Shown one piece after another: positions 5,474 to 37,378 of a stretch of 64,000 bases of DNA (position 1 is the stretch's first letter; every line of letters begins with the position of its first letter). A program made the translations under genes and the position numbers. Source of the stretch: Ostreococcus lucimarinus (Eukaryota); the NCBI GenBank assembly GCA_000092065.1, contig CP000587.1. One strand, 5' to 3'. The notes under the pieces are model-generated. The model ran no database searches. It saw nothing but the letters and a program-made list of their open reading frames with translations, and was not told the DNA's origin.

Positions 5474-5935
<462 letters not shown>

Positions 5936-5971
5936 ACGGAGCGTGTGAGTCGTTCTAGAGTGATTAACGCT

Positions 5972-5976
5972 TGTAA
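5972..5976 (+). terminator. putative chlorophyte-type poly(A) signal TGTAA
   Basis: TGTAA lies 37 nt downstream of the RPS27A stop codon. UGUAA is the established poly(A) signal of green algae. Confidence 0.35.
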
Positions 5977-6010
5977 AGAATGATGGAAATGCTACAAATC
6001 TCGTGCTAGA

Positions 6011-7069
6011 CTACCGCAAGGCGCTCTCGTCCTTGACGCCATAAATTTCGTCGTAACGCTTGTGACTGCGCGCTAAATCGACCACACCGCTCGCCCCAAA
6101 AAGACGCTCCACCGTTGCCGACGCGCACTGCTGCGTGGCGGTCGCGTCGTCGACACCGTGATACTCTCTGACGACTTTCGCCAACGCGTCGCACGGCACA
6201 AAGAGCACGCGCGGCCCTTCGTCCCCCAGAAACTTTTCGCCTCCGGGCTGGGAAAGCCGACAACACGCCATCGCGTGCGGCTCATCCATCGTGCTCACCT
6301 CTCGTCCGGTGTCGCTATTCAACACGTTGATCGGTCGCAATCGCTTGCACTCGACGACGCGAGTCGATCCGAGCACGTCGGCTTCGACGGCTTTCGCCGC
6401 CGCCTCGTCCGTCGTCTTTAGCAATCTGATCGCCTCCTTCCCACTCGTCGTCGCCTGCGTGGACGACCACAGACGAAACAAAAAGTAGTACAACGGAAAG
6501 TTACTGACCGGCGTCAAGAACATGGGCATGCTCAACGGCGCACCGAGCGCGTACATCGTCGTCGCCGCGCGCGCGTTCTTCGTCCCGTCGACGACGGTTC
6601 GCTCCACCAGCCTCCGCACCGCCCCCACGTCCACCCCGCTCGGGTACACGATCTCCACGCTCGACAGTATCTTCGGCATCTCCTTCAGCGCGCGCTCTCG
6701 AGGATCGATCCTGTCCATCGCGAACATCCCGAGCTCGTGTATCCGCCGCCTCGCCGACCCCGGCGCGCTCGCCGCCATCGCCCGCCACGTCTTCTCCCCG
6801 TAATCCACCGCCCTCGCGCCCCACCGTCGCACCCACGGCATCGCGCGATCGATCGTCCGCATCGCGCGCGTCGCCATCGTCCCGTTCGCGTCGTCGGCGC
6901 GTCCCATCGCTTCGCGCGCGCGCGCTTCCGCGGGCTCGACGACCGCCGCGCCGTGCGCCATCCATCGGTGCCCCTCGCGCGTCGTCGTCGACGTCGACGA
7001 CGTCGCCGCGCCTCCGAACGGCACCACCACCATCCGCGCCCGCGACGCGAGCGCGCGCCGCGTCGCCAT
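6011..7069 (-). CDS. conserved hypothetical protein (possibly organelle-targeted)
   Basis: 352-aa ORF with complex, non-repetitive composition in its C-terminal 250 aa (…FPLYYFLFRLWSSTQATTSGKEAIRLLK…VLFVPCDALAKVVREYHG…) and an Arg/Ala-rich presequence-like N-terminus. No family recognised. Confidence 0.5.
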   Translation of the reverse strand: MATRRALASRARMVVVPFGGAATSSTSTTTREGHRWMAHGAAVVEPAEARAREAMGRADDANGTMATRAMRTIDRAMPWVRRWGARAVDYGEKTWRAMAASAPGSARRRIHELGMFAMDRIDPRERALKEMPKILSSVEIVYPSGVDVGAVRRLVERTVVDGTKNARAATTMYALGAPLSMPMFLTPVSNFPLYYFLFRLWSSTQATTSGKEAIRLLKTTDEAAAKAVEADVLGSTRVVECKRLRPINVLNSDTGREVSTMDEPHAMACCRLSQPGGEKFLGDEGPRVLFVPCDALAKVVREYHGVDDATATQQCASATVERLFGASGVVDLARSHKRYDEIYGVKDESALR

Positions 7070-7434
7070 CGCGCGCGCGCCGCGGTCTCGCGCGGCGGCC
7101 GTCGCGGCGTCGCGCGCGCGCGCCCGTAACCACCCGCGCGACGCCCGCGTCGTCGGTGATGCATCGTCGCGCGCATTCGCGTCGCGCGATGGGTCTCGAA
7201 CGCCTCGACTACGACGCCAGCGTGGCCGACTTTTTTATTTTTTATCAGATATTTTCGCGCGCCCCGAGATCTCGTAGTGTGCGCTTTCCGAACGGTATGT
7301 GCGTGCGCGACCATCGACGTCGCGTCGTCGACGTAACGCGCGATGGCGTCGTCACGCCGACGCGCCGTCGCGCGCGCCGCACACGACCGCGCGCGCGCCG
7401 GAATCTCGCGCGCGTCGCGACGGACGCGCGAACG

Positions 7435-8799
7435 ATGGCCGATTGCACCGTCGCCGTCGCGGAACGCGTCGACGAGGGCGCGCGCGACGCGAAAACGGGC
7501 GCGGATTCCACGACGCGCGCGACGCATGACGTCGATGGCGCGCGCGACGCGATCGACGACGACGGCGACGAGGGCGCGCGCGAGGGCGCGATGGCGACGC
7601 GAGACGCGACGGACGACGCGACGTTGGACGACGAACCAGCGCGGGACGCGAAGGGGAGCGATTCGCGGGAACGCACGGTGTTCATCGGCGGGACGAGCCA
7701 CGAGTGCGACGAGGCGCGCGTGCGCAGATTCTTCGAGGAGGAACACGACGCGAAGGTGGAGAACGTGAAGCTGATATACGATCGACAGACGCTGGTGAGG
7801 AAGGGATACGGGTTCGTGAAGTTTTACAGCGTCGAGGACGCGGCGCGGGTGAAGGCGATGGGGAAGGTGACGATCGACGGGAAGGCGGTGGACGCGAAGG
7901 AGGCGACGCGGGACGAACCGGCGAGCGCGGGAGAGGGACGAACGCGGGAGGGAAGACACGAGCGCACGCGATCGCACGGGAGCGGGAAAATGTCTCGGGG
8001 GAGTTCGCACAACTCGCTGAGCGAACACATGGGGCGGATGTCGGTCGGGAACGGGGCGAGAGTCTCGGGAGGGGCGCCGCAGCGACACCCCGCGGGGGGG
8101 GCGCCGCATCTTCGCGGCGCCAAGGCGTCCAAGGCGCAGTTGTCTCGATCGCCGAATTACGTCGGTGGGCTGGACGACGGGGCGAGCGGGAGCGAGAGCG
8201 GTGAACGATCGAACAGTGGCGCGCCGGGGACGGAGAACACCGTCTTTTGCGGGGGGCTTCCGCTGGAAGCCACGCCCGAGGCGCTCGGGTGGTTCTTCGC
8301 GCACTACGGCACCGTGCTCAGCGTAAAGCTGATTTACGACAAGCTCACCGGTGCGTGCAAGGGGTACGGCTTCGTCGTCTTCGCCGACGTCGCGATCGCC
8401 GAAATGGTCAAGGCACAGCGCCAAATTCCGTTCCTCGGGAAGATGATCGACGTGAGCGAGGCGATGCGTCACGTGGGGCGCCACGACGACGGACGAGGCT
8501 TCGCGCCGGGCGCGCAGTACGGCACCAAGCGCGCGATGGGTTACGGATCTCAAGGGCCATTTTACCCGCCGCAGATGTCCATGTACCCACCGCACATGGT
8601 CATGCCGCCGCACATGGCCATGGGGGGGCAAAATCCTCACATGGCTATGATGGCGATGCACCACATGCAGTTCGCGGGCTACCCGATGTACGCCAACGGA
8701 GCGACGGTGTACGGCATGCCTGGCGAGCATGTCGAAGACGACGAAGAAGACAGCGATGAAGTCGCGGCCGAGGGCGAAACTGTTGCCGCTTCCGAATAG
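7435..8799 (+). CDS. RNA-binding protein with two RRM domains and a Met/Pro/His-rich C-terminus
   Basis: Two RRMs with RNP1/RNP2: TVFIGG…KGYGFVKFYSVEDA and TVFCGGLP…KGYGFVVFADVAIA. The C-terminus is low complexity (PPQMSMYPPHMVMPPHMAMGGQNPHMAMMAMHHMQFAGYPMY). The start is set at the in-frame ATG (MADCTV…) rather than the ORF-track start at 7156, which is preceded by an Arg-rich stretch. Confidence 0.75.
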   Translation: MADCTVAVAERVDEGARDAKTGADSTTRATHDVDGARDAIDDDGDEGAREGAMATRDATDDATLDDEPARDAKGSDSRERTVFIGGTSHECDEARVRRFFEEEHDAKVENVKLIYDRQTLVRKGYGFVKFYSVEDAARVKAMGKVTIDGKAVDAKEATRDEPASAGEGRTREGRHERTRSHGSGKMSRGSSHNSLSEHMGRMSVGNGARVSGGAPQRHPAGGAPHLRGAKASKAQLSRSPNYVGGLDDGASGSESGERSNSGAPGTENTVFCGGLPLEATPEALGWFFAHYGTVLSVKLIYDKLTGACKGYGFVVFADVAIAEMVKAQRQIPFLGKMIDVSEAMRHVGRHDDGRGFAPGAQYGTKRAMGYGSQGPFYPPQMSMYPPHMVMPPHMAMGGQNPHMAMMAMHHMQFAGYPMYANGATVYGMPGEHVEDDEEDSDEVAAEGETVAASE

Positions 8800-8914
8800 A
8801 CGAGCGACTCTTTTTACTCGCTACGCTACGCTACGCACTACAACACACTACAAAAAAACGCCGCAGAAAAATAGAACGATAGATCCGCCATGTCATCACA
8901 CTCTCGCCTCTTGT

Positions 8915-9838
8915 TCAACGAAGTCGCTCATCGAGGCGCGAATCGTCTAAAAGCACTCTGGAATCGAGCTGCTTGTTATGCTTGCCCTGTCGTCGACTTT
9001 CGTACGATTCAAATCCATCCGTTCGCTTCAAAGTGCCGACGTCCACGAGAGTTCGTCTCAGGCTCAGCGTCGTCAACCGATCGCACGCGAGCAAAATTTC
9101 TCCCGGCACGCCGTCGCACTTCGTGTCGTCCACATCTATTTCCTTCAGCTTGACCGCGTGCGCCCACGCCACCGGCAACGCGCCACGCATTTCACGATTA
9201 CGCGCGAAACGAATGACCTCTAAATCAGCGCAATTCCCGAGTCCGGCGATCGCGTCGTCGAACGTCGTCAGCGCGTTCGCGCTCGCGTCCAACCGTCGAA
9301 GCCTTTTGCATTTCCCGAGCGTCCGCGGCAGCGCTCGCAGCGCGTTCTCGCGCACGTCCAAATCTTCGAGCGCGAGCAACGAATCGATGTCTTCCGGCAG
9401 CGCCGTCAATTTATTCCCTCGCAAGTCCAGCGTCTTCAAGTTGACGAGCGTCGAAAAGGCGCGCGGCAGCGCTCTCACCGCGTTGAAGCTCAGGTTCACC
9501 TTTTGCGCGTTTCGCAAGCTTCCGATCGCGTCGTCGACGTCGACGATGGCGTTCGACGCCAAGTCGAGCACGCGCACGCGCGCGCCGACGTCGCGTTCGA
9601 AGACGTACGGCGGCACGCGCGCGTGCCGCGCGTCGCGTTCGGTGACGATTCCGGTCGCCAGAGCCGTCTTCTTTCGCGATTCTTCGGCGTTCGCGCGGTT
9701 ACGCGATCGCCAGGCCGCGTCCCAGGCCGCGTCGACGCTCGACGTGACCTCGTTCCAGGCGTTCGCGACGCGGGCGAAGACTTCGTCGACGGACATGGAC
9801 GAGACGCCGCCGCGCGGCGTCCGGCGAGTGAGGCGCAC
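8915..9838 (-). CDS. leucine-rich repeat protein (SDS22/PIRL-like 22-24 aa LRRs)
   Basis: Tandem LxxLxLxxNxIxxLP repeats: LDLASNAIVDVDDAIGSLRNAQKVNLSFNAVRALPRAFSTLVNLKTLDLRGNKLTALPEDIDSLLALEDLDVRENALRALP…. Confidence 0.8.
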   Translation of the reverse strand: MRLTRRTPRGGVSSMSVDEVFARVANAWNEVTSSVDAAWDAAWRSRNRANAEESRKKTALATGIVTERDARHARVPPYVFERDVGARVRVLDLASNAIVDVDDAIGSLRNAQKVNLSFNAVRALPRAFSTLVNLKTLDLRGNKLTALPEDIDSLLALEDLDVRENALRALPRTLGKCKRLRRLDASANALTTFDDAIAGLGNCADLEVIRFARNREMRGALPVAWAHAVKLKEIDVDDTKCDGVPGEILLACDRLTTLSLRRTLVDVGTLKRTDGFESYESRRQGKHNKQLDSRVLLDDSRLDERLR

Positions 9839-22335: not shown

Positions 22336-23907
22336 CTAAGGCATTAGAGACGGTTCGTGTAACGGTTCGAGCGGCGCGTCGCCGTCGTGCGCCGTGCTGT
22401 TATCTACTTGGCACATTTCCCATATTTTTACGCCACAACCGCGCCACAGAGAGTCTTCGATGCGGTCCATCTGATCTTCCGCCGGCCAAAGACCGTCAGG
22501 AGTCGCCAAAACAGCACCGATATAAGACTGACCGGCAGACTTTGCCGCACCAGCGTAGTAGTACAGCGACCAACTCAAATCATCCGCGGCGTCGACGACG
22601 CGCCAGTACTCCTCGCTCGTCACGCCGTTGTCCATGAAGGAAAAAATAAATGTTCCCGGTGTCTCTGCGCGCCTACATCGGTAATCGCTTCGACGGTACA
22701 CGCTCCGACCGTCGAGAGTGTTCACTTTGAAAACAGGATTATACCAGAAAGCAGTTTTGTTTTTCTTATCCTTGTACCATATCTGGAACTGATTCGGAAA
22801 GTAATCGTACGCAGGATTTTGCCCAGCGACGGCGAGCCAACTGTATTGCTTTTCGCCGAGCCATCCTTGCATTATACGCTCCGCGGCGGCGTGCGTCAAC
22901 ATCTCGCCACGCCACGTCGTCATGGGAAGCACAGCCGGTAACTGCGGTCGCTTGGCGTCGTTCCCGAGACAATTGTGCTTGTGAAGCATGCACCTAGCGA
23001 GCTTCTCAAACTGTTCGTTCTGATAGCTCCTTATGCACGTGTACGTGCACACTTGATCGTTGAGTCCGCACGCATCCACGCAATCGAGGCTCTTTTTGCA
23101 TTGCGGATTCTGGTAACACGCGAGTAACTGTTTGTTGCAGTTGCTCGCGATGCACCAAACGTTACCGAGCGTGATGTCCTGGTTTATGTCGACTGCCGGC
23201 ACGCGAGCGCCCGACGCGTCGACGAGCAACAAGATTGAGAGCAACGTATCGAGATGATTTCCACGCGCGTACAACTCCTTCACTTGATCCATCAGTCGTA
23301 CATCCTTCGCCGCCTGACTCCAAGGCGTTAATTTTGCGCCTACCGCGCGCAACTGTCGCGTCGGCTGATAACAAATCCGCTCGTCCGCCTCCAACGCCGG
23401 TGAATTCAGCGCGCAACCAGTCGCCGCCGATGCCGTAGCGCGTCGCACTCTCCCCGCCGTCTCCTCATCATCGACATCTATCGCGATGAAGACATCCGCA
23501 TCGCTCGCACCGCTCGCCCGCATCTCTTCATCGCTCGCGTCGACATCGACCACGATCATCCGTAGCGTTCCCTCGTCCGCGTCGCTCCACGCGACTCTTC
23601 TCGCCAGGTGTTCGAACACTTCACCAAAGCTCGGCCCCTCGACGTCGAACCGTCCGCGCGCCGCGAGTGATTTCGGATACCGCATGAACGACAACGCATC
23701 CTTTCGCGCGAAGCACGCCACGGTGCACGCGGCGCTGGACGCCGCGCGCGACGCGTCGACGACGTCGGGACTGGGCTGGATGGGCGACGTCACGGCGGTG
23801 GCGACGACGCGCGCGGCGCGCGCGGGACCGCGGCGACGCGCGGACGACGCGGTGTGCTGCGCCACCGGTCGCGCGCGCGATGCGGACGCGAACGCGTCGG
23901 CGCGCAT
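22336..23907 (-). CDS. VDE: violaxanthin de-epoxidase family protein (VDE / VDE-like)
   Basis: Cys-rich N-domain whose Cys spacing follows Arabidopsis VDE (CIASNCNKQLLACYQNPQCKKSLDCVDACGLNDQVCTYTCIRSYQNEQFEKLARCMLHKHNCL), followed by the lipocalin-like core (…NPAYDYFPNQ… YYYAGAAKSAGQSYIGAVL…). Presequence at the N-terminus. Confidence 0.75.
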   Translation of the reverse strand: MRADAFASASRARPVAQHTASSARRRGPARAARVVATAVTSPIQPSPDVVDASRAASSAACTVACFARKDALSFMRYPKSLAARGRFDVEGPSFGEVFEHLARRVAWSDADEGTLRMIVVDVDASDEEMRASGASDADVFIAIDVDDEETAGRVRRATASAATGCALNSPALEADERICYQPTRQLRAVGAKLTPWSQAAKDVRLMDQVKELYARGNHLDTLLSILLLVDASGARVPAVDINQDITLGNVWCIASNCNKQLLACYQNPQCKKSLDCVDACGLNDQVCTYTCIRSYQNEQFEKLARCMLHKHNCLGNDAKRPQLPAVLPMTTWRGEMLTHAAAERIMQGWLGEKQYSWLAVAGQNPAYDYFPNQFQIWYKDKKNKTAFWYNPVFKVNTLDGRSVYRRSDYRCRRAETPGTFIFSFMDNGVTSEEYWRVVDAADDLSWSLYYYAGAAKSAGQSYIGAVLATPDGLWPAEDQMDRIEDSLWRGCGVKIWEMCQVDNSTAHDGDAPLEPLHEPSLMP

Positions 23908-24092
23908 GAAGCCGGAAGCGCGGGTGTGTCGAGGCGTGAACTGTGGAACTAAGACTGACTATGGATATGACAAAACGGTGCGGTATGGTATATAAATGTG
24001 GTCAAAATTGGCGACCGCTCGGCTTCGTCGACGGCGACGTGGAGCGAAAATTGGTGTGCGTCGCAAATAAGAACCGCGAGCAGACAGTGACA

Positions 24093-26240
24093 TCACCGCT
24101 GTTCAGCGCTGACGAGCGGGCGGTACATGTCGTGCAAGGCTTGGAGCTGATGGAGAAGTCCAAGGTATTGCGTCGACGTATAATCAAAGCACGCCGGGAA
24201 AACGGAACGGCGGTCCGATTCTTTGGCGACTTTGCTTGCCAAGACGATCTCTGAGAGTTCGAGCAGCCTGGCTGTGTGAAGCGTCCCCATGCAAGCGTCC
24301 GCTTCGGCTAGCGCTTGCTTATTTCTCAAAGCAGCTTCGCAGAACTGATAGTCCATCGTGAGCACGGCGAGAAGCGCGGCAGTCTGCATGCACGCCTCTT
24401 CTTGTGAGAGATTCAACAGCCTCGCTTCGAGATTGCGCATGGACGTCGGCGCTCGCTTGAGAAATTCCAAGATGTTCAAAGTGACGTGAAGGTCGGAGAA
24501 GTCTGCGGCGCGGAACATCAACACGCGGTGATTCGCGTGTAGGCTACCGAGTCTAGACAGCAATGAGCTCGTCTCAGCGGTGAACTTTTGCGCGTTCTCC
24601 ACCATGATGACGGATTCCCATCGAACCTGCCGCAAGAGCACGATGTCCAGCACCACCGTTGAGTGCGTCGTGATGAGAACATTGAAGCGAGGAGTTGACA
24701 CGCCGTTGGTCGCACGGGGAAAGGCGCCGACGAAGGACCATTCGTGCTGTTGTACGGTCGCACGGCACGTTGCCGAGCCGCCGTACTCGACGACGTTCAC
24801 GTCTGGCGCAATACGACTGAATTCGCGGGACCAGTGCTCCAGCTCGCTCTCGGCGACGATGATGAGAGACGGCCCGTGTTCGTCGTACTGGCGCTTTCGA
24901 TCGGCAATAAAGTTAGCCGCGACCTCGGCGTGTTTACAGAGCGGCGAGTTATCCACGAAACACACGCCCTCCTTTTCAAACCACGTCGCTAAGAGCCAAC
25001 GTGCGACGCATTGTACGCCTTTGCTCGGTTTGTTACTCTCGTCGACGTTTGCCAAGCTCGGTGGCACGCTGTACGGGCGTTTGAGACTTTCGTGGTCGAA
25101 CTGGGTGTAGCGTTCGAGCAACATGTCGAAATCGTCGTGCCCATCTATCGTCTCCCATGTGCAGTCGGCGTACGGTAATCCCCACCACTTGACGAGCAAG
25201 CGCGTGTTTGGCGGCATGCCCGTCACGTTCACGACGCGTTGCGGGCGCAACCAGGTGCGTTTAACCGCGTATACGGGGTCACCCAACACCGCACGAGGGT
25301 ATTGCGCCTCGAAAGCCCTGAGAATATCCGGACACGCGCGCTCCAAATCCCTCTCGCGCACCCACGAGTTTCGCGCGTGCGACCGTCCTTCCCAGCGCAC
25401 GTAGCACTCCGCCACATCGCGAACGCGTCGCCCAAACACCCCAACCACGCGCTCACCCTCACCAAGAACTTTTTCCAAATCTACGACTTCGAAATCATCC
25501 GCGCCCACGTCCGCGCCCGCATCCGCGTCCTTCGCGTCCTTCGCGTCCTTCGCGTCCTTCGCGTCCTTCGCGCGCTCGTCGTCTCTTCGCGCCCCGTTCC
25601 CATCCTTATCGTCCGCATCGCTTCCAGTATTCGGCGATCGCGCCTCCGGCGGCGTCGCTCGCTTCACGCTCTCCACCGTCCGTCGCGTTCTTCGGCGCGT
25701 CTCTCGTCGTCCCAACGCGCCCGCGCGTTCGTCGCCCGCGCGTTCGCTCAAGTCGCTCCCGCTGCTCCCGCTCGACCCCTTGCTCGCGCGTCTTTTCCCG
25801 TCCTCGCGCCTCGTCGTCCGCGTCGCCCGCGTCGCCTTGCCCACTAAATCGCTCGCCGACGAGTCGTTCGAGCGTTCATCGCGATCGCTCGACGACGTTC
25901 GCGTCGCGCGGCGGTTCGCGAGCGTCGCGCGGCGTCGCGTCGCGGGCATTTCCGCGATATCTTTTCCCGGGACGCGATGACGGCGCGCGCGCGCGCTCGA
26001 CGCGTCGAGATCGTCGCGCGGCGCGCGCGACGGGCGCGAAAAAATTCGCGCGTACCGCGCGCGCTCGCGGTGTGCGCCGATGGAGTTGGACGCGTCGCCG
26101 CGGGCGCGGGGCGCGCGCGCGGGACTGCGACGCGCGAGGGCGCTTTTTCGCGCGAAAAAGGCGGCTTTTTCGGCACGAGATCGAGATCTCTTGAGTCGTG
26201 AACGGTCGATGGAGGGGGTCGAACGGATGCTTTTATCCAA
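24093..26240 (-). CDS. CHD1-derived protein: tandem chromodomains + catalytically degenerate SNF2_N fragment, no helicase-C domain (possibly a pseudogene)
   Basis: Chromodomain 2 ([16 protein letters not shown]) matches CHD1 (CKWQGLPYSECSWE). The SNF2_N region aligns colinearly with CHD1, but motif I is SPLCKH (for GLGKT), motif II is VENAQKF (for VDEAHRLKN) and motif III is FRAADFS (for TGTPLQN). The ORF stops 186 bp before the next gene with no helicase-C domain. Confidence 0.7.
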   Translation of the reverse strand: [715 protein letters not shown]

Positions 26241-26265: not shown

Positions 26266-27888
26266 TCACGCGCGCGGCTTTGGTCGGCGCGCGCGAGGCG
26301 GGTCTCTCTCGCGCGCGGCGCGCGGTCGTTTGGCCGAGGCGGCGCGGTCGCGGAGATCGGCGACGAAGATGACGTCGTCGGTGGTGGTGGTGGTGGCGTC
26401 GGCGGCGTCGGAGTCGGCGTCCGCGTCGGCGGCGGCGTCGGCGGCGAGCGCGCGGCGAAGCGCCGAGACGTTGTCGCGCGGGAAGGTGTCGAGGGAAATG
26501 CGTCTGAGCTCGCGTGGGAGCGAGCGACAAGACGCTAAATCGATCGTGCGGAGGTTCGGAAAGCGGCCGTGGCGACCGGAGACGAGGTGTTTGATCGTGG
26601 AGGTGGTGACGCCGGATCCGGGGACGCGCAAGACTCGAAGCGGAAAGTCTGGGCCTTCGTGGGCGAAGAGTTGCTCGAACGCGGCGTCGGTGACGAACCT
26701 CGCGTTCGCACCTACGTCTGCAAGCTCGAGGACTTCGAGCGCGGGACAGAGATGAGCGAGGATGTGCGCCACCGCGCCGTCGTCGGAGGAAATCGGGGTA
26801 CGCGCGCATCGAAGCGTCTTGAGCCGCGTCGGCAGGCGATCCCACACGAGGTTGCGCCAGTCCCCTATGTGCGTGCACCCCGTGAGATCGAGAATTTCGA
26901 TGCTCTCTATCGATCCGTACAACATGGATATCATCGTCTCGTCGTTCACGTTCGAGTTGCCGTATCGATGCCCGACGCTCGTCGTCTCCATGGACACCGC
27001 AATTTCGAGCACGCGCAAGTCTTTCCAGCACGTGTGTTCGAAATCTTCGCCAATATCGCCCACGATGCGCCATCCTGATTCTCCGCCAAAATGATTTAGC
27101 TTGAGCTCTTGTAAATGCGGAAGCGCGCGCTGCATGCTGAAGAGCGGAAACCGCACGTCTTCGCCGCAATTCGTGAGGTCGAGCGAGCGAAGCTCGCCGC
27201 AGCGCCTTATCGTCTCGAATAATCTGACCGCTCGCGTCGAGAACGCCCGGCGCTCGTGAGGAGAGTACGGCGCTTCTCGTCCGCAACTGACACTTCGCAA
27301 CGTGTCGCAATTACGAGCGATAAAGTACTCAAAGACTTCGAGTACGTCCGCGGGCGTCATCTTTGGCGAGCTCAAATCTATCTTAATCGCCGCCAGACCC
27401 GGTCGCTGCTCCGCAAAGGCGATCATGGCCGATTTCGTAAATGATCCACCACTAAAAACTACGCTCTCCAGCGACTCGCAACTCTCTCCAAGCAGGCGCA
27501 ACGTCGCGTCCGTCAACTTCCCGCACCCCGACAAATTCAACCGCCGAACGCCGCCAAACACATTCTTTTTCGCGTACGCCCGCATCCTCGCGTCCGTCGC
27601 CGCGCAGAACCCATACGAAATATCGAATTCCTCGTAAAACATCGCCGGTTCCCGCTCGATCGCGTCGCGGAACGTCCTCGACACGCATCGCAGCGCCGCC
27701 GCCGTCGTCGTCCCGCGCGCGCCGTCGTCCCGCACCCGTCTCGCCAAAATCTCCTGCACGATCTCCATCGGCAGCGAATCCAGCGTCGTCCTCGCGTACC
27801 GCGCGTCCTCGCGCGCCGTCGTCGTCGCCCGCAGCGCCTGCATCGCGCGTTCGTCGTCGTCCGGCGTCATCGACTCGGCCACCACCAC
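26266..27888 (-). CDS. F-box / cysteine-containing LRR protein (FBXL-type)
   Basis: N-terminal F-box (LDSLPMEIVQEILARRV) followed by ~26-aa CC-type LRRs (LNLSGCGKLTDATLRLLGESCESLESV, LDLTNCGEDV, LDLTGCTHIGD). Confidence 0.8.
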   Translation of the reverse strand: MVVAESMTPDDDERAMQALRATTTAREDARYARTTLDSLPMEIVQEILARRVRDDGARGTTTAAALRCVSRTFRDAIEREPAMFYEEFDISYGFCAATDARMRAYAKKNVFGGVRRLNLSGCGKLTDATLRLLGESCESLESVVFSGGSFTKSAMIAFAEQRPGLAAIKIDLSSPKMTPADVLEVFEYFIARNCDTLRSVSCGREAPYSPHERRAFSTRAVRLFETIRRCGELRSLDLTNCGEDVRFPLFSMQRALPHLQELKLNHFGGESGWRIVGDIGEDFEHTCWKDLRVLEIAVSMETTSVGHRYGNSNVNDETMISMLYGSIESIEILDLTGCTHIGDWRNLVWDRLPTRLKTLRCARTPISSDDGAVAHILAHLCPALEVLELADVGANARFVTDAAFEQLFAHEGPDFPLRVLRVPGSGVTTSTIKHLVSGRHGRFPNLRTIDLASCRSLPRELRRISLDTFPRDNVSALRRALAADAAADADADSDAADATTTTTDDVIFVADLRDRAASAKRPRAARERDPPRARRPKPRA

Positions 27889-28835: not shown

Positions 28836-31205
28836 GTGGAGGCGCCGTTCGGGGATGATGTGCCGGAAGAGTTTCGAAATTCGGCGTTGGAGTACGAGCT
28901 GCGGATGTATAACGGAGAGACGGCGCGGGCGGTGGTGTACCTGGTGTACGCTGAGCCGACGCGCGGGACGAGCGAGGCGCGAGGCGCGGGCGCGCGGGAC
29001 GGGAAGACGAAGGGCGTGAGTGATGGACGAGGGTTTTCATGGTTGCCGGTGATGCGGGAAAAGTGCGTGAAAGGTTGCGATGGGCCGATTTTGAGCGCGA
29101 TTCAGAGGTTTGGGAAGCAAGGGCGGACGCAAAAGAGTGCGGCTTCGCAAAAGGATGCGAAACCCGACGCCAAACCGACGGCGGAGAATGAGTGGAAGGA
29201 TTCACGAAACTTGTTCATCTCCATCGACGAGGCGAGTAATCACGTGTGTGCGTACGGACCGAATCAGTGCAAGGCATTCCGTTTGCTCTTTGGTTTGTAC
29301 GCCAAAGAAACGAACGAGTTTGTGGGGAGCGGCGTCTCAGGACCGATTCGCGTGTTGGCGAATAACGACGTGCCCAAGGGCGCGGCGGCTATGCGCGTGA
29401 AATGTGGATTGAGCGATTCGTGGAACGGTTGGAAGGAAACGGCAGAGAAGAGCGAGGATGATTTGCGAGAAATTTTCCGAGCAGCAAACTGCCCGCAACC
29501 GGCCGGGAAGGCGAACCAGAATCGTCGCCTCGACGACGCGACGCAGCAAAACGCGCGAAAGCCGTTGCAAACCCAGACCAACAACGGTGACAAGGTGGGA
29601 GGCAAGCGCGCGGCGGCCAAGGGAGGTGTAGCGCCGGCTCCGTCGAAGCGCCCGAAGCAAACCGTATCGCAAAAGGCGCAGCTTGCACGCGAATCGAAGT
29701 CGGTGAAGAGGACAAAGTCGGCTCGAAGCGGTGGCTACTTTGATTTCGACACCACCGTGAACACGGCGCTCCAAGATCTCGCGCTCGGTATGCCTGTACT
29801 CGGTGTTTCTGCGCAAGATTCGCAAGACTTACAGTTTCAGTTGAATGCAATCATGCCATCTCCCCTGGGGACGCCGCCGGATGAGAAAGCTGCCGGTGCT
29901 GGCGCGAACCCGTTTGCGGGTATGTTCGGTACGCCCGAATATCTTGCCGCGCAGGAGATCTTGGGCGACGCGCTGAACACGGCTGATCTACCTTCCTTAT
30001 GCACGCCCGGCGATAAAAAGGCCGAGACTAATTTGTACGACGGTATGCCGCCACCCACGACGGGAATGGGCACGTTCAAGTTTACTCCAGGAGCGTTTCC
30101 GAACATCGCGTCCACCGGCAGCATGATGTCCCTCTCTGGGTTGGACTCTCTCGGTGGGCTCATCGGAAGCGCATTTGGAAAGACGCCCGCAGAATTCAAG
30201 ACGAACAAAACAGAGTCGAAGATTTTCACGCGGTCTGCGAAGAAGGTGGCCGCAACCGGCGAACCGACGCCAGTGACGCAATTTGTGAACTCTCTTTTGA
30301 TGAGCAGGCAAAAGGCGTCGGCTGAGAGAACCGCTTCAATGCCGCGCACGTCTCGCAGAAGCACTCGCGCTGCGCTCAAGGAAGTGGCTCCGAGTGATGC
30401 AGCTCCGAGCACGACCGCGGCGAGCAAGTTGATAACTGCGCCCAAGTCTGCGACTGGACAAGCCGAAACTGGTATTGCGACCGGCGTCGCTTCGGCGCCC
30501 GGAGTGGAGGCTGCCGGAGCGACGTTCGACGTCGCCCCGATTCGCGGTGCTCGTAGTCGTCATGCTTCGCCGACTGGTGTTGCGCCCGTTCGCTTATTTT
30601 TCGCGTCTCCTTCAGGTCGCGGTGGAGAGACCTTGGACGGGAGCGATGACGAAGACGACGCTCTGGGATTTGCTTCTCCAAACTTGCGAAAGGATGTGGC
30701 TGGCGCCAACGGTCAACTGTTCAGTGCGCGGGGTAGACGTACGCGTAACGCACCGCAGATTCGGTTACCGCGCATGGCATCCGTTCCAGAGATTGCGAAC
30801 GAAATGACGGCTGGAGAAAAGGCGAGTGATCGTGCGGCTACTAAGGCTGCGAGATTGTCGGGTCACTTTCGTCCTGTGAAGATGCCGCCGCCGCCAAAAC
30901 ACGTCGCGGCGGGTCCGGATTCCATCAAACGGAAGACTAGACACAGTACGGTTCACTTTAGAAATGACGTCAACTTTGAAAACGAGGCTCCGAGCACGTC
31001 CAAGCGCAACGCTTCTGGTGAGGAGAACGAGGCTCCTTCACCGACGGATGTCGCCGCCGCCCTGCTTTCTCCCGGTTGGCCGTCGACGAAAAGGCGCAAG
31101 GCGCTCAATAAACACGCCGACGCGAGCGGTGAAATCAAAGGCAATTCTCCAGGATTCATCGCAACGATCAAGGAGCGCGTCACGAACGCCGTTGGGTGGG
31201 CGTGA
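28836..31205 (+). CDS. hypothetical protein: ~250-aa structured N-domain + ~500-aa S/T/A/P/K-rich disordered tail
   Basis: Complex N-domain (…GFSWLPVMREKCVKGCDGPILSAIQRFG…HVCAYGPNQCKAFRLLFGLYAKE…). The ORF-track start is a GTG, and the first in-frame ATG is at ~28902 (MYNGE…). The 5' end is unresolved. Confidence 0.55.
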   Translation: MEAPFGDDVPEEFRNSALEYELRMYNGETARAVVYLVYAEPTRGTSEARGAGARDGKTKGVSDGRGFSWLPVMREKCVKGCDGPILSAIQRFGKQGRTQKSAASQKDAKPDAKPTAENEWKDSRNLFISIDEASNHVCAYGPNQCKAFRLLFGLYAKETNEFVGSGVSGPIRVLANNDVPKGAAAMRVKCGLSDSWNGWKETAEKSEDDLREIFRAANCPQPAGKANQNRRLDDATQQNARKPLQTQTNNGDKVGGKRAAAKGGVAPAPSKRPKQTVSQKAQLARESKSVKRTKSARSGGYFDFDTTVNTALQDLALGMPVLGVSAQDSQDLQFQLNAIMPSPLGTPPDEKAAGAGANPFAGMFGTPEYLAAQEILGDALNTADLPSLCTPGDKKAETNLYDGMPPPTTGMGTFKFTPGAFPNIASTGSMMSLSGLDSLGGLIGSAFGKTPAEFKTNKTESKIFTRSAKKVAATGEPTPVTQFVNSLLMSRQKASAERTASMPRTSRRSTRAALKEVAPSDAAPSTTAASKLITAPKSATGQAETGIATGVASAPGVEAAGATFDVAPIRGARSRHASPTGVAPVRLFFASPSGRGGETLDGSDDEDDALGFASPNLRKDVAGANGQLFSARGRRTRNAPQIRLPRMASVPEIANEMTAGEKASDRAATKAARLSGHFRPVKMPPPPKHVAAGPDSIKRKTRHSTVHFRNDVNFENEAPSTSKRNASGEENEAPSPTDVAAALLSPGWPSTKRRKALNKHADASGEIKGNSPGFIATIKERVTNAVGWA

Positions 31206-32511: not shown

Positions 32512-34290
32512 TTACCCGTCGCCTGCGACGACGGCGTCGACAGCTTCGTTGAAAATCTCCACCATTTTGTCCAATACCTCGTACTGTGACTTTTGGATTC
32601 GTTTTTTGTCTTGAAGTTTGAATTCTTGCTCGGCGTCCCAGGGTGGGAGCGGTTCGATTTTCTTCAGAGAGTCCCACGAGCCGAGGTATTCGCGCTTGTC
32701 GAATCTCCAGACCTCGTGGTCCTCTTTGTTCGAAATGATGGCGCCCCATGTGTAGTGCATCACCGAACTCTGGCCAATCGCGATATCGGCAGGTGGTTGT
32801 ATCATAAGTTTCTGGAACGGTACGGGTGGGAGCTCGAACTCAAGCTTCGGTCGTACTGCCGCCGCGGCGAAGGACCAAGCATACATGTCTCTTACCCATC
32901 CAAACACTCTCTTAACGACCTCGTTCGACTCCCCGAACTCGACTTTATCCGCCCACACCGGCGCGACACGCTCTAAATCATCTCGATGTATACACTGAGG
33001 TGCATTCCCAGTTTGGTAAACGTCCTTCAACGGGCCATCCTTCGACACATCGTGCAACAACACCGACGCCTCCTTGGCGTCCGGGTACGAAGGTACAATA
33101 TACCCGAACAAAAATCCGTACGAAATACCCTTGGCGAGCAAGACGCTCGGTGGTGGGCTACGAATAAACAAATAATCGGTTTCCGCCATCAAGATGTGCG
33201 AACATCGCCTAGAATCGTCCGACTTCATCCATTCAGCGATGGCTCGCGCGCGATCCTTCACCGCGTAGTCGCAAGAATTATCGCATTCAACGTGCGTTGG
33301 ATCGGCGCGCCATGTCGGGACGAGATCCATCAAGCTATCATCTGTTGAACGATGCAAAATTCTAGTGAAATGTCGTAAAACGCTATCCTTTTCGCTCGCT
33401 GCTTTCTTCCAAGTCTGGTAGAACACACGCGTCTGCCAATTCATATACGGCGAGCCGTTACTCGTAATCATCGTATGCACGCATGTCTTCAATTCTGTGC
33501 TCTCTGCGTCATACCTTGACTTCTTCGGATATAATACTCCACTCGTTGTCTTTCTGTTGTGCTCTTCACCGTACATCGGAGGGAGATAATCATTTATCAG
33601 AGTCCCGGTGAAGCACTCGTTCGGCTTGGCGGGATCGTGCCTCCAAAACTGACATTTAGCCGTCTTCTTGCACAGCTCGCAGCAATCTCGCGCGACGGTG
33701 ATCGATACTCCCTCGACCGACTGAGTCAGAGGTTGTGGTCCCCAGTAATCGCTCTGAGGTAACTCGTGACACTCGTCTTCCGGCGTCTCGGCGTCGCGTA
33801 TCCTTCGCCACTCCTCTGCGTCGTACCCATCCCTACTCGAGATATCATCCATCACGCGCGCCGTTTGCGCGCCTTGTTCCCCTAGGCGTCCCCGCTCGTC
33901 GCGTTCGCCTTCCTCGATCACTTTCGCCGGCGCCCGATCGCTCTCGTCGTCGTCGTCGCGCGCTCGACGTTCCGTCCCGGCGACGCCGTCGCCCTTCTCG
34001 CCACGTCTCACCGCTTTCGTGCGTTCTGTCGCCGCCGCCCGCGCATCGTACGCGTCGATTCTACTCTGCACGCGCTCTCGAACGTACGCCTCGACCTCAC
34101 GCTCATCGCTGAAGCGTCCTAAAGTCGAAGCCGCGGTGGGATCTTCATCTTTTGGAAAGTGTGGCGTCACGCGGTCGACGATGAGCGCGTACACGCACGC
34201 GGCGATGAAGAGAGTCAGCGCGGAGGACGTTATTTTCGCCCCTCGCGACGCTCGCGGCGGGGAGGAGCCGGGGAAGGGTCGACGCTTCAT
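32512..34290 (-). CDS. type II membrane glycosyltransferase, hydroxyproline O-arabinosyltransferase / peptidyl-Ser galactosyltransferase-like (GT95/GT96-type)
   Basis: N-terminal signal anchor (ITSSALTLFIAACVYALIV). HTMITSNGSPYMNWQTRVFYQTWKK resembles the conserved block shared by plant HPAT and algal SGT1 enzymes. Cys-rich PAN-like segment (CCELCKKTAKCQFW). Assignment is from memory of the family and not verified. Confidence 0.55.
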   Translation of the reverse strand: MKRRPFPGSSPPRASRGAKITSSALTLFIAACVYALIVDRVTPHFPKDEDPTAASTLGRFSDEREVEAYVRERVQSRIDAYDARAAATERTKAVRRGEKGDGVAGTERRARDDDDESDRAPAKVIEEGERDERGRLGEQGAQTARVMDDISSRDGYDAEEWRRIRDAETPEDECHELPQSDYWGPQPLTQSVEGVSITVARDCCELCKKTAKCQFWRHDPAKPNECFTGTLINDYLPPMYGEEHNRKTTSGVLYPKKSRYDAESTELKTCVHTMITSNGSPYMNWQTRVFYQTWKKAASEKDSVLRHFTRILHRSTDDSLMDLVPTWRADPTHVECDNSCDYAVKDRARAIAEWMKSDDSRRCSHILMAETDYLFIRSPPPSVLLAKGISYGFLFGYIVPSYPDAKEASVLLHDVSKDGPLKDVYQTGNAPQCIHRDDLERVAPVWADKVEFGESNEVVKRVFGWVRDMYAWSFAAAAVRPKLEFELPPVPFQKLMIQPPADIAIGQSSVMHYTWGAIISNKEDHEVWRFDKREYLGSWDSLKKIEPLPPWDAEQEFKLQDKKRIQKSQYEVLDKMVEIFNEAVDAVVAGDG

Positions 34291-34407: not shown

Positions 34408-36267
34408 TTAATCGTACTTGGTGTAAGAATTCGATGGCATGAGGAAGCACTTGGCGAGCGACAACAATCCACCGAACTGTTGCGCGACGTTCAAGCCGAA
34501 GAACATGCGCGACAGCGCCTTGCAAAAGGCAAACGCGTTATCCGCCACGGGGTAGCACAACGGAGGAGGGATATTGGTCTTCATGAGCCATGGAAATCGA
34601 TCGACGACGACGGATTTCGGGACGCAGCAACCGCGGAGTCCTTCAATACCGGCGAAGCGGTCGAAGCCGGATTCCTTGACGCCGCCAAAGGGAAGGGACT
34701 GCGCCATGTACGTCGAGCAAAAGTCATTGATGGAAGTCATACCGGCCTCCAGCTGTGAGCCAAGCTTTTCTGCGCGTCTCGTTGAGCGCGTGAAAACATT
34801 TGATCCGAGACCAAAGTCGCAGTCGTTCGCGAGCGAGATGGATTCCTCGTCGCTCTTTGTCTTGACGATGGCGAGCACGGGACCAAAGACCTCTTCGCGA
34901 GCGATTCGCATATCGTGCGTGATGCCAGAGATCACTGTCGGAGGGTAGAACTGACCACCCTGGGCGCCCAGTTCGATCTTACCACCGACGTGGACGGTCG
35001 CACCACGTGCGACGGCGTCGTCGATGAGAGACTGCACGTACTGCGCTTGCTTTGGCATGCACATCGCCCCACAATCCACGGACGAGCTCAGCGCCCATCC
35101 TTGACGTAACTTCCTCGCCGACTCCAGTACTTTGGCTAAAAACTTGTCGTGAATCTTCTCATGCACGTAGAATCGTTCGGCTCCCGCGCAGTTTTGACCG
35201 CACGATTGAAACGCGCCGCGCAGCGCCATGGGAACGCACTGCTTGAGATCCGCGTCTGCGCAGACGATGAACGGATCTTTACCACCGAGTTCGAGGACGA
35301 CCGGAGTCAAAGTCTTCGCCGCTGCCTCCATAACCTTACGTCCGATGCCAGTGGATCCGACGAAGACTACCTTTTGCACACCGCCAGTGACCAACGCGCT
35401 GCCCGCTTCGCCGTAACCGGTGATGATTTGCACCAAGTCGCGCGGCGCTCCCACGGCATCAAGCGCGGCATCGATGACGCGACCGTAGTACTGCGAGCTC
35501 CAGCTCGCGTACTCACTCACCTTGACGACGAGCGCGTTCCCCGCGAACAAGTTCGCCACCAAAGGATTGAAAACGTTGTGAAACGGATAATTCCACGGCA
35601 CGATTGCGCCCATGACGCCCACCGGATGATACTCCACCCGCGCCTTCTTATAAAACATCATGGCCCCGGTCGATCGCTTCTCGGGTTTCAACCACCGCTC
35701 GCCCTCGTTGCACAGCCATCGAATCTTCTCCAGCGTCACCAGAACCTCCCCGAACGCCGCGTCCACCAACGGCTTACCGCTGTCTCGCGCGCTCACTCGA
35801 CAAATCGTATCCTGCTCTTCCAATATGAACCGCTGTATCACCCGCAGCAGCTTCCGACGCGTCGCGAACGAGCTTTTCGCCCACTCTCTCTGCGCCTTCG
35901 CCGCTTTGGCGATTCTCTCTCGCACTTCCTCCGCCCGCATCGCCGGCAGGTTCGGTCCGAGCGCGCGCATGTTCCCCGGATCGTAGCACGGCACGCTGTC
36001 CGTCGGCCACGCCGCGTTCGCGTCCCACCGCGCGCCCTCCACGCCGCGCGCCTCCTCGTCCGTCAGCGTCACGCGCAGTCTCGGCGCGCGCGTCGCGCGC
36101 AGCGCGCGCAGCACCACCGCCGCGACGAGCGCGACGATCCAAAACCGGCGCTCGTCGACGAGCGCGATCTCGAGCGCGAGCGCCGCCCGCGCGAGCTCGC
36201 GCGCGCGCGGCGGCATCGGGACCGCGTCGAGGACGCTCGCGAGCGCGCGCGTCGCGTCGCGGGACAT
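34408..36267 (-). CDS. ALDH: aldehyde dehydrogenase (ALDH22-like, membrane-anchored N-terminus)
   Basis: ALDH catalytic Cys and Glu blocks (ELGGKDPFIVCADADL; FQSCGQNCAGAERFYVHE) and the Rossmann GxxxxG (FVGSTGIGRKV). The start is set at MSRDATRALASVLD…. The ORF-track extension to 37341 is an antisense frame of the glutaminyl cyclase gene. Confidence 0.9.
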   Translation of the reverse strand: MSRDATRALASVLDAVPMPPRARELARAALALEIALVDERRFWIVALVAAVVLRALRATRAPRLRVTLTDEEARGVEGARWDANAAWPTDSVPCYDPGNMRALGPNLPAMRAEEVRERIAKAAKAQREWAKSSFATRRKLLRVIQRFILEEQDTICRVSARDSGKPLVDAAFGEVLVTLEKIRWLCNEGERWLKPEKRSTGAMMFYKKARVEYHPVGVMGAIVPWNYPFHNVFNPLVANLFAGNALVVKVSEYASWSSQYYGRVIDAALDAVGAPRDLVQIITGYGEAGSALVTGGVQKVVFVGSTGIGRKVMEAAAKTLTPVVLELGGKDPFIVCADADLKQCVPMALRGAFQSCGQNCAGAERFYVHEKIHDKFLAKVLESARKLRQGWALSSSVDCGAMCMPKQAQYVQSLIDDAVARGATVHVGGKIELGAQGGQFYPPTVISGITHDMRIAREEVFGPVLAIVKTKSDEESISLANDCDFGLGSNVFTRSTRRAEKLGSQLEAGMTSINDFCSTYMAQSLPFGGVKESGFDRFAGIEGLRGCCVPKSVVVDRFPWLMKTNIPPPLCYPVADNAFAFCKALSRMFFGLNVAQQFGGLLSLAKCFLMPSNSYTKYD

Positions 36268-36501
36268 GACGGACGACGGCGCGTCGCGATGTCGCGAGTC
36301 GCGTCGCATCGCGACGCTCGAGGCGCGGTCGTCGATGCCGAGCGACGACGACGCGACGACGGCGGACGCGCGCGAGGCGGAGACGGACGCGCTCGTCGCG
36401 CGCGTCGACATGGCGCGCGCGAGGGAACGACGCGAGGCGACGACGACGACGCGCGCGGCGACGGGCGCGGTCGTCGCGTGCGCGCTGCTGGCGCTCGCGC
36501 G

Positions 36502-36536
<35 letters not shown>

Positions 36537-37378
36537 CGGCGCTCGGCGCGCGGCGCGGCGCGAGAGACGACGGCGAACCGCGAGTGTTCTCGTACGACGT
36601 CGTCGAGGCGCACGCGCACGACGCGAACGCGTTCACGCAGGGATTGACGACGTGCGGAGACGGGATCATGTGCGAGAGCACGGGGGCGGTGGGCGGGACG
36701 CCGAGCGAGGTGCGGACGACGACGACGGCGACGGGGGCGAGACGCGCGGGCGCGGACGTGGGCGGCGCGTTCGCGGAGGGCCTGACGCGCGTGGGCGACG
36801 ACGTGCACGTGATTTCTTGGAAGTCTAATCGCGGGTTCACGTACGCGGTGACGGCGGAGGGTGAGGTGACGAAGAAGTGGACGTTTGAGACGCCGTTGTC
36901 GGACGGTTGGGGTTTGACGTCGCTCGACGGCGAGCTGTACGTCACGGACGCGAGCGACAAGTTGCACGTGCTCGACGTCCCCGGACGGGACGGGGCGAAG
37001 TTGAAGTTGAAACGATCGATGACCATCACGGATGACGGCAAAGCCATCAGATTCGCGAACGAATTGGAGACCATAGGAGGCGACGTGTACGCCAATATCC
37101 TCGAGCGGCCGTGCTTGGCGAGAATCGATCCCGCGAACGGCAAAGTGACCGCGTGGGTGAATTTAGATGGATTGAAGCAAGCGTCCCCGAACGATGGCCG
37201 CGGTGATGTGTTGAATGGGATCGCGTACGACGAAAAACTTGATGCCTTGTACGTTACGGGCAAGAATTGGCCGACGATGTTCCGGTTGAAGCTTCGCGAG
37301 GAGCAAGGCGCGAGCCTGGACGCGGTTCGCGCGACGTGCACGCCCCCTTCGAGTCTACCGGGATACGGATACTTGTAG
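36266..37378 (+). CDS. glutaminyl-peptide cyclotransferase, plant/bacterial beta-propeller type
   Basis: FSYDVVEAHAHDANAFTQGL…, …KWTFETPLSDGWGLTSLDGELYVTDASDKLHVLD and …VLNGIAYDEKLDALYVTGKNWPTMFRL match the plant QC propeller. Probable signal peptide, so the true start may be the internal MARARERRE…. The ORF-track ATG overlaps the ALDH ATG in a CATG. Confidence 0.85.

Follow-up and report, generated by a model that had tools for sequence, protein, structure and literature searches.

What can a gene do that encodes the front half of a chromatin remodeler in which every motif for ATP hydrolysis has been replaced? The question is raised by a minus-strand open reading frame (ORF) at positions 24093–26240 of a 64,000-nucleotide stretch of Ostreococcus lucimarinus contig CP000587.1 (hereafter the window), which a preliminary description had read as a CHD1-derived protein with two intact chromodomains, a degenerate SNF2 ATPase and no helicase-C half. 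We find that this gene is kept by purifying selection and is no pseudogene. Its product, a nuclear-type protein referred to here as the pseudo-remodeler or window protein, is probably a repurposed, non-catalytic, chromatin-associated scaffold derived from a PKR1/CHR4-like remodeler.

The ORF exists as described and reaches 715 aa when read from a TTG codon under translation table 11, but the true coding sequence is shorter, the 715-aa length being a product of the bacterial-code start. The first ATG, at 25949, opens a frame of 618 aa, and the aligned orthologues share its MPATRR start. In a comparison with L001, the closest orthologous locus, the ~290 nt 5' of this ATG carry indels of 13, 8, 5, 4, 3 and 1 nt and are therefore regarded as non-coding. 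The gene and its immediate flanks are as follows:

24093–25949, minus strand: coding sequence of the pseudo-remodeler, 618 aa in a single exon, stop codon at 24093–24095
25950–26240, minus strand: in-frame upstream stretch behind the 715-aa TTG ORF, a non-coding 5' region
23908–24092, no strand: intergenic spacer to the downstream VDE gene, 185 bases, with no helicase-C exon

In the protein, Pfam recognises Chromo in two stretches (E-value 4.8e-12) and part of SNF2-rel_dom (E-value 4.5e-11, profile positions 6–159 of 290); the same scan found no Helicase_C and no SANT-SLIDE, CHD1-like_C, PHD finger or DUF1087. AlphaFold2 (AF2), run on the full 618 aa, gave a mean predicted local distance difference test score (pLDDT) of 47 and a weak fold search. 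The usable model, built on a 24-sequence alignment, covers residues 148–618 and has a predicted template modelling score (pTM) of 0.74 and a mean pLDDT of 70, with the chromodomains and lobe 1 at 80–90. Its best Foldseek match is CHD4 on the nucleosome (6ryr; E-value 6e-19, query TM-score (TMq) 0.55), followed by Chd1, with ISWI and INO80 also matched. Profile, model and fold search thus agree on a SNF2-type lobe 1, and the tandem chromodomains stand directly N-terminal to the ATPase, as is characteristic of the CHD family (Pfam; PDB matches to CHD1, CHD4 and CHD5). From the N-terminus onwards, the parts of the protein are:

25500–25949, minus strand: disordered N-terminal region, residues 1–150, rich in Arg, Ser and Asp, net charge +10, with RRR and KRR clusters; AF2 pLDDT 23–31; ratio of non-synonymous to synonymous substitution rates (dN/dS) 0.7–1.2
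25518–25571, minus strand: (AKD)n repeat within the disordered region, columns 350–380 of alignment A1
25299–25454, minus strand: chromodomain 1, residues 166–217, HP1-like fold; phmmer matches in the PDB to HP1 (1kna, 6mha; E-value 1.6e-4); AF2 pLDDT 81–92
25140–25253, minus strand: chromodomain 2, residues 233–270; best PDB matches to chromodomain 2 of CHD5 and CHD4 (E-value 1.7e-7); Pfam Chromo; columns shared with CHD subfamily II (CHD-II)
24447–25007, minus strand: degenerate SNF2 ATPase lobe 1, residues 315–501, RecA-like alpha/beta fold; AF2 pLDDT ~75–91; recognised by SNF2-rel_dom, hhalign and Foldseek
24924–24956, minus strand: former motif I (Walker A), replacing ADEMGLGKT; 'VDN' invariant, the next Ser nearly invariant
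24582–24611, minus strand: former motif II (DExH), replacing LIVDEAHRLK; varies among clades (VEH, VES, YDG, HDS)
24489–24527, minus strand: former motif III, replacing RVLLTGTPLQNNL; 'LMFRS(A)(D/N)' conserved within the family
24351–24446, minus strand: helical segment after lobe 1, residues 502–533, still alignable to CHD 'FpSL..FeekF..L....v..L.KLvA'; the hhalign alignment ends at residue 528
24096–24350, minus strand: family-specific C-terminal region, residues 534–618, standing where the rest of SNF2_N and then lobe 2 would come

The blocks of the chromo-ATPase half do align with CHD1, as had been noted, and the HMMER alignments to CHD4 (6ryr) and yeast Chd1 (3mwy) display the replacement of all three ATPase motifs: 'DNSPLCKH' stands opposite 'DEMGLGKT' (motif I), 'MVENAQ' opposite 'VDEAHR' (motif II) and 'MFRAADF' opposite the 'LTGTPLQ' of 'LTGTPLQNNL' (motif III). 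None of the catalytic SNF2 sequences GxGK[T/S], DExH and TGTPLQN occurs in the window protein or in any other member of its family. The Walker-A lysine is kept in the window protein (CKH) but varies across the family (K, L, R or N), and the stretch before motif I aligned to 'PHQLEALNWL' of active relatives, which we take to be the Q motif, holds no glutamine conserved in the family. The residues in common with active CHDs are mostly core positions, together with the blocks 'P.L..V...W', 'NVV.Y.G', 'FNVLLT' and 'WE', presumably motifs Ia, Ib and Ic. At the ATP-contacting positions stand 'VDNS' and 'LMFRS', residues that are specific to the family and conserved in it. The profile alignment against the PDB stops shortly past motif III. 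The earlier characterisation as a pseudo-remodeler rather than an enzyme, with an intact double chromodomain, motifs I, II and III replaced and the helicase-C half missing, is borne out by these comparisons. Since it lacks the P-loop, DExH, motif III and lobe 2, the protein would be no ATP-driven translocase, and neither ATP hydrolysis nor DNA translocation is to be expected of it.

Does the missing lobe lie elsewhere? The enzyme might be split or mis-annotated, with a helicase-C lobe that comes from a downstream exon, is supplied in trans by a separate gene or is masked by a frameshift in the sequencing. This idea is prompted solely by the protein's sudden end close to the boundary between lobes 1 and 2, with nothing else in its favour, and we judge it very improbable. 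The next gene on the same strand (22336–23907, minus) lies 185 nt downstream, in agreement with the 186 bp first reported, is complete and matches Pfam VDE only. The end point and this neighbour are identical in six clades and in many independent assemblies; no Helicase_C was found in the six orthologous loci or in the downstream VDE gene, and intron-containing relatives likewise lack it. Catalytic motifs are absent from lobe 1 regardless, and the cis case is largely refuted. A downstream helicase-C exon and a frameshift concealing GLGKT and DEAH, both envisaged in the preliminary description, are therefore rejected, the former because the VDE neighbour is complete and every orthologous locus has this layout, the latter because replacements that are identical in many independent assemblies are no sequencing errors.

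The breadth of the family is best seen in an orthologue search covering 5.8 billion proteins, which returned 24 protein clusters at 46–99% identity, all of 370–710 aa and all with Chromo and/or SNF2_N only. Their alignment displays identical motif replacements throughout, with the strongest conservation in the dead lobe and the C-terminal 120 residues, and the frame is intact in all clades. An intact ATPase at the syntenic locus of related species, which had been considered beforehand, is not what we observed: motifs I–III are absent in every member, and Helicase_C is found in none. Six lineages, compared at 88%, 66%, 54%, 54%, 53% and 50% identity, share a block of genes in the order RNA recognition motif (RRM) protein, unknown protein of 720–825 aa, leucine-rich repeat (LRR)/F-box-like protein, pseudo-remodeler, VDE, EF-hand protein, CPDase and FAST-like protein. 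The GC content, the densely packed genes without introns and the origin of the sequences in marine metagenomes lead us to infer that the family belongs to compact-genome marine green picoalgae, Ostreococcus-like Mamiellales.

Selection was measured as dN/dS by the Nei–Gojobori method against the closest orthologue (whole-gene dS 0.115). The value is 0.09 in the degenerate lobe 1 (dN 0.018, dS 0.195, unsaturated), 0.38 in the chromodomains and 0.70 in the disordered N-terminus, with 0.32 for the whole gene and 0.20–0.33 for three neighbouring genes; the dead lobe is more constrained than the chromodomains. Between clades, synonymous sites are saturated, and lobe 1 differs at 16–26% of non-synonymous sites, with an amino-acid identity of 74–84%. 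In the C-terminal region, dN/dS between clades is 0.08–0.22 where computable, values that are indicative only, since dS is at or near saturation, and it is 0.22 in the unsaturated L011–L004 pair. These data bear on the suggestion of a recent pseudogene whose open frame is owed to the rarity of stop codons at high GC. The base composition (GC ~0.6–0.65, and 0.61 locally at the gene) and the loss of all catalytic motifs would fit such a decay, and it was right to caution that at high GC (63%) an intact frame says little about selection, an argument whose place is now taken by dN/dS and synteny. The low dN/dS of the degenerate lobe at an unsaturated dS, its identity between clades despite synonymous saturation, the invariant family-specific residues and the conserved synteny, length and architecture make a pseudogene so improbable that it can practically be dismissed.

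From which remodeler, then, does the family descend? We searched the family profile against 1.84 billion representative proteins, and the matches fall into tiers:

family proper: ~840 bits, 3 representatives
PKR1-type: 170–193 bits, proteins of 1400–2900 aa
PKL/Mi-2-type: ~110–130 bits, CHD subfamily II with a SANT-like domain
CHD1-type: 87–100 bits, three Pfam-labelled proteins among the best 150 matches

A domain scan of five PKR1-type proteins found an intact SNF2 domain and two chromodomains in each; the four that are full-length (4/4) also have PHD, Helicase_C and DUF1087 and lack the CHDII SANT-like domain. The layout of PHD, chromodomains, SNF2, Helicase_C and DUF1087 is that of the plant PKR1/CHR4 clade (PMC9113485). 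Against the PDB, the family profile scores 88 bits for CHD4 versus 73–75 for Chd1/CHD1. An hhalign comparison of the family with the PKR1-type proteins gave a probability of 100%, an E-value of 2.4e-49 and 32% identity over 344 columns, spanning chromodomain 1 to the point equivalent to the junction of 'KLVA' and 'PHMLRR'. In a neighbour-joining (NJ) tree (309 columns, 300 bootstraps), bootstrap values of 100% support the family, the family together with two diverged relatives (P0131 and P0133), and the union of that group with the PKR1-type proteins, with CHD1 distant. Given this grouping in both scores and tree, the derivation from CHD1 that was first proposed is unsupported, and on these sequence affinities the pseudo-remodeler descends from a plant-type CHD subfamily II (PKR1/CHR4-like) remodeler.

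Comparison with individual subfamilies gives the same picture. CHD1 resembles the window protein in its tandem chromodomains followed by a SNF2 lobe 1, but the C-terminal SANT-SLIDE and CHD1-like_C domains that mark the CHD1 subfamily are lacking, the family lies away from CHD1 in the NJ tree and its affinity to CHD1 is not the closest. With Mi-2/CHD4 it shares chromodomain 2 and the preceding strand, which match CHD5/CHD4 best (CHD side 'YGIKPEWMMIHRILN'), whereas the PHD fingers, the active motor, the C-terminal CHDCT2 and DUF1087 of that type are missing. The closest intact relatives are of PKR1/CHR4 type (e.g. Arabidopsis At5g44800), with 29–31% identity over ~370 aa, from chromodomain 1 to past motif III, and a common chromodomain 2 signature, 'KW.GLPY..CTWE'. 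The affinity of the core is thus to the PKR1/CHR4 clade, whereas the N-terminal PHD finger and C-terminal DUF1087 of that clade are absent; PKR1-type proteins, at 2000–2900 aa, also have intact GxGKT/DEAH/TGTPLQN and Helicase_C, none of which the window protein possesses.

Would such a protein act through its chromodomains alone, as the term 'reader-only' in the preliminary description implied? Chromodomain 1 matches HP1 best, but of the aromatic cage only one of three residues is left (Y24 replaced by E, W45 kept, Y48 replaced by R); cage positions 1 and 3 are non-aromatic or variable across the family, so that an HP1-type three-residue aromatic cage is not present. CHD subfamily II chromodomains of this sort bind DNA or nucleosomes rather than methyl-lysine. 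Moreover, one abundant clade (P0023/P0086/P0087; 244 member sequences from Tara, JGI, ENA and NCBI data) has undergone a clean in-frame deletion that starts shortly ahead of chromodomain 1 and stops where chromodomain 2 ends, and the idea of a mere reader is weakened accordingly:

L011–L016, 6001–7479: chromodomain-less orthologue at the same syntenic position as 24093–25949, deletion junction '...ITEAEGAAPRAPGRGEEEDGHEDF...'

Against its nearest chromodomain-bearing relative, this clade has a dN/dS of 0.26 in lobe 1 and 0.22 in the C-terminus, at a dS of 0.29–0.41. The chromodomain loss is secondary, as judged from these sequences, and, as the clade keeps lobe 1 and the C-terminus under selection, the selected module appears to be the dead lobe plus the C-terminal region. 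The latter has invariant 'MG.LH.ARL..L..IVL' and 'FP..FD..S..Y..L..L..L...Y.P' (alignments A1 and A2), and its last 85–90 residues matched nothing in Pfam or the PDB. A MAFFT alignment of the C-terminus onto lobe 2 was forced and was set aside as an artefact.

A repurposed scaffold would use these parts as follows. The indispensable module would consist of the dead lobe's surface and the C-terminal helices, probably serving in partner binding or self-association; additional affinity for chromatin or DNA would come from the basic tail (net +10) and the chromodomains. Several observations weigh against this account or parts of it. The last 70 residues, with two predicted helices, have a pLDDT <50, so the C-terminal fold and any dimerisation rest on a low-confidence model, and the close-pair dN/dS of the C-terminal region is 0.76, a value derived from very few substitutions (dS 0.05). 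The mean net charge of lobe 1 is −1.2 versus +4.8 in active relatives, which, although a proxy, may speak against strong DNA binding by the lobe, whose direct binding to DNA seems doubtful. Finally, NJ is a simple distance method, applied here to a long-branched, fast-evolving family.

A different role would be that of a decoy or dominant-negative factor, which would vie with a putative full-length PKR1/PKL-type remodeler in the same cell for binding sites on nucleosomes or partners and so tune remodeling instead of acting as a scaffold. The protein has kept the arrangement of chromodomains and lobe 1 by which CHD4 and Chd1 dock on nucleosomes, and the structural and lobe 1 surface motifs Ia/Ib/Ic are better preserved than the ATP motifs. 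Nevertheless, the chromodomain-less clade still holds the gene under selection, and the most conserved part of the protein is the family-specific C-terminus, which active remodelers lack; we therefore regard competition of this kind as rather doubtful. Less likely still is a nucleotide-binding, non-hydrolysing switch, in which the altered pocket (VDNS..C.H, LMFRS) would bind ATP, ADP or another ligand and control a conformational change. Across the family, the residues now standing at motifs I and III have been conserved without drift, as expected of a pocket in use, but no glycine-rich P-loop is left, neither the Walker-A lysine nor the acidic pair of motif II is conserved, and lobe 2 is absent. 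In active remodelers, the arginine fingers come from lobe 2, which also closes the cleft.

The scaffold reading would have a parallel in land plants. To our knowledge, remodeler-derived pseudoenzymes are rare, and MOM1 of land plants is the one studied case. MOM1 descends from a CHD3/PKR1-like remodeler, and its SNF2 remnant is dispensable, its function lying in the C-terminal CMM2 motif (PMC2507757; PMC9113485). MOM has been reported from embryophytes only, with none in Chlorophyta, and the same study includes 4 chlorophyte 'PKR1' entries (PMC9113485). Both MOM1 and the algal family are non-catalytic descendants of PKR1-like CHD-II proteins that have lost remodeling function, with a partial or degenerate ATPase and conservation moved to a lineage-specific C-terminal helical motif; in the scaffold, as in MOM1, the role would have moved from the ATPase to that motif. 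They differ in what was retained: Arabidopsis MOM1 has kept helicase motifs IV–VI (lobe 2) and lost its chromodomains, whereas the algal family keeps the chromodomains and lobe 1 without lobe 2. Unlike the dispensable SNF2 remnant of MOM1, the algal dead lobe is strongly constrained, and the algal protein is also far shorter (~620 aa versus ~2000 aa). Because MOM is reported as embryophyte-specific, an independent origin of the algal family appears more likely. No paper on the algal family came up when the literature was searched for natural SNF2 pseudo-remodelers or for one described from Mamiellophyceae.

We tentatively put forward, as a possibility, that the family is an independent MOM1-like factor of green picoalgae, in which the dead lobe 1 and the new C-terminal helical motif would form an ATP-independent module for chromatin silencing or organisation, perhaps self-associating through its C-terminal helices, with dispensable chromodomains, and retained in the most streamlined genomes of free-living eukaryotes. 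The pseudo-remodeler would be a second, apparently independent case of a remodeler pseudoenzyme, in which the surviving half of the motor is opposite to that of MOM1. As its dead lobe is more constrained than its chromodomains, it offers a natural test of what a SNF2 lobe 1 can do without ATP. Some compact-genome marine picoalgae can be cultured and genetically modified, and function is thus directly testable. There is also a warning for surveys: such proteins can be missed or given a wrong start, both where CHD searches demand clean matches to the ATPase domain and where metagenomes are annotated with prokaryote-style gene calling.

Other high-GC lineages harbour diverged relatives that likewise lack the motifs and whose genes contain introns. 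P0131 and P0133 share 38–39% identity with lobe 1 of the window protein and lack the motifs; proteins of this type are encoded at high GC, are rich in low-complexity sequence and are split by introns (loci L017, 72% GC, and L018/L019, 61% GC). A search with P0131 and P0133 alone recovered intron-split fragments, and a profile from the mixed alignment A3 brought in no further relatives, its word filter being saturated by close members of the family. Helicase_C was not found in these intron-containing relatives, and their neighbours (U-box, ankyrin, BAG) differ from those of the family block:

L018/L019, 5654–10731, and L017, ~5500–9500: loci of the P0131/P0133 type, with 4–5 ORFs split by introns and long Gly/Ala/Ser/Gln inserts

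Other proteins with lost or corrupted motifs were encountered as well. P0180 (1010 aa, from a less GC-rich source) combines a zf-HC5HC2H PHD-like zinc-binding domain, an HP1-like chromodomain with an apparently complete cage, and tandem chromodomains with a motif-less lobe 1 ('NDAMDLNRR', 'VVEHES', 'LTQPLSAG'; 20% identity) and no Helicase_C; it may be a further, distant relative or an independent pseudo-remodeler. P0233 and P0242 resemble plant sequences of PICKLE type; their Walker A is corrupted ('LADNMWLGTR', 'DDEMGIGTYVFSKT') and their ATPase regions are truncated, and they may be plant CHD pseudogenes or assembly artefacts.

The N-terminal tail matched nothing in Pfam or the PDB. The copy number of its (AKD)n repeat varies between near-identical strains, the window protein having two copies more than P0001. 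At residues ~55–80 (A1 columns ~245–275), a short motif ending in '..DGRV.I(D/A)' is kept in most clades, including the chromodomain-less one, and its hydrophobic half is replaced in the window protein's own clade ('GDERAGALG').

Around the pseudo-remodeler, the neighbouring gene content (VDE, hydroxyproline arabinosyltransferase, formin and EF-hand protein) is that of a green alga. In every clade examined, also the one without chromodomains, an LRR/F-box-like gene (26266–27888, minus strand, in the window) is the direct upstream neighbour and has the same orientation. Further upstream, a 789-aa ORF (28836–31205, plus strand) has no Pfam match; it is probably a conserved lineage-specific gene, since every orthologous locus has a domain-less ORF of 719–825 aa at the corresponding syntenic place. 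At 34408–37341 (minus strand), a 977-aa ORF carries an aldehyde dehydrogenase domain at residues 450–911 only, preceded by an N-terminal extension of ~450 aa without a Pfam family; its GTG start may be a bacterial-code artefact. Between 32001 and 34000, GC falls to 0.54, compared with 0.60–0.69 elsewhere, over the hydroxyproline O-arabinosyltransferase gene (32512–34290, minus strand).

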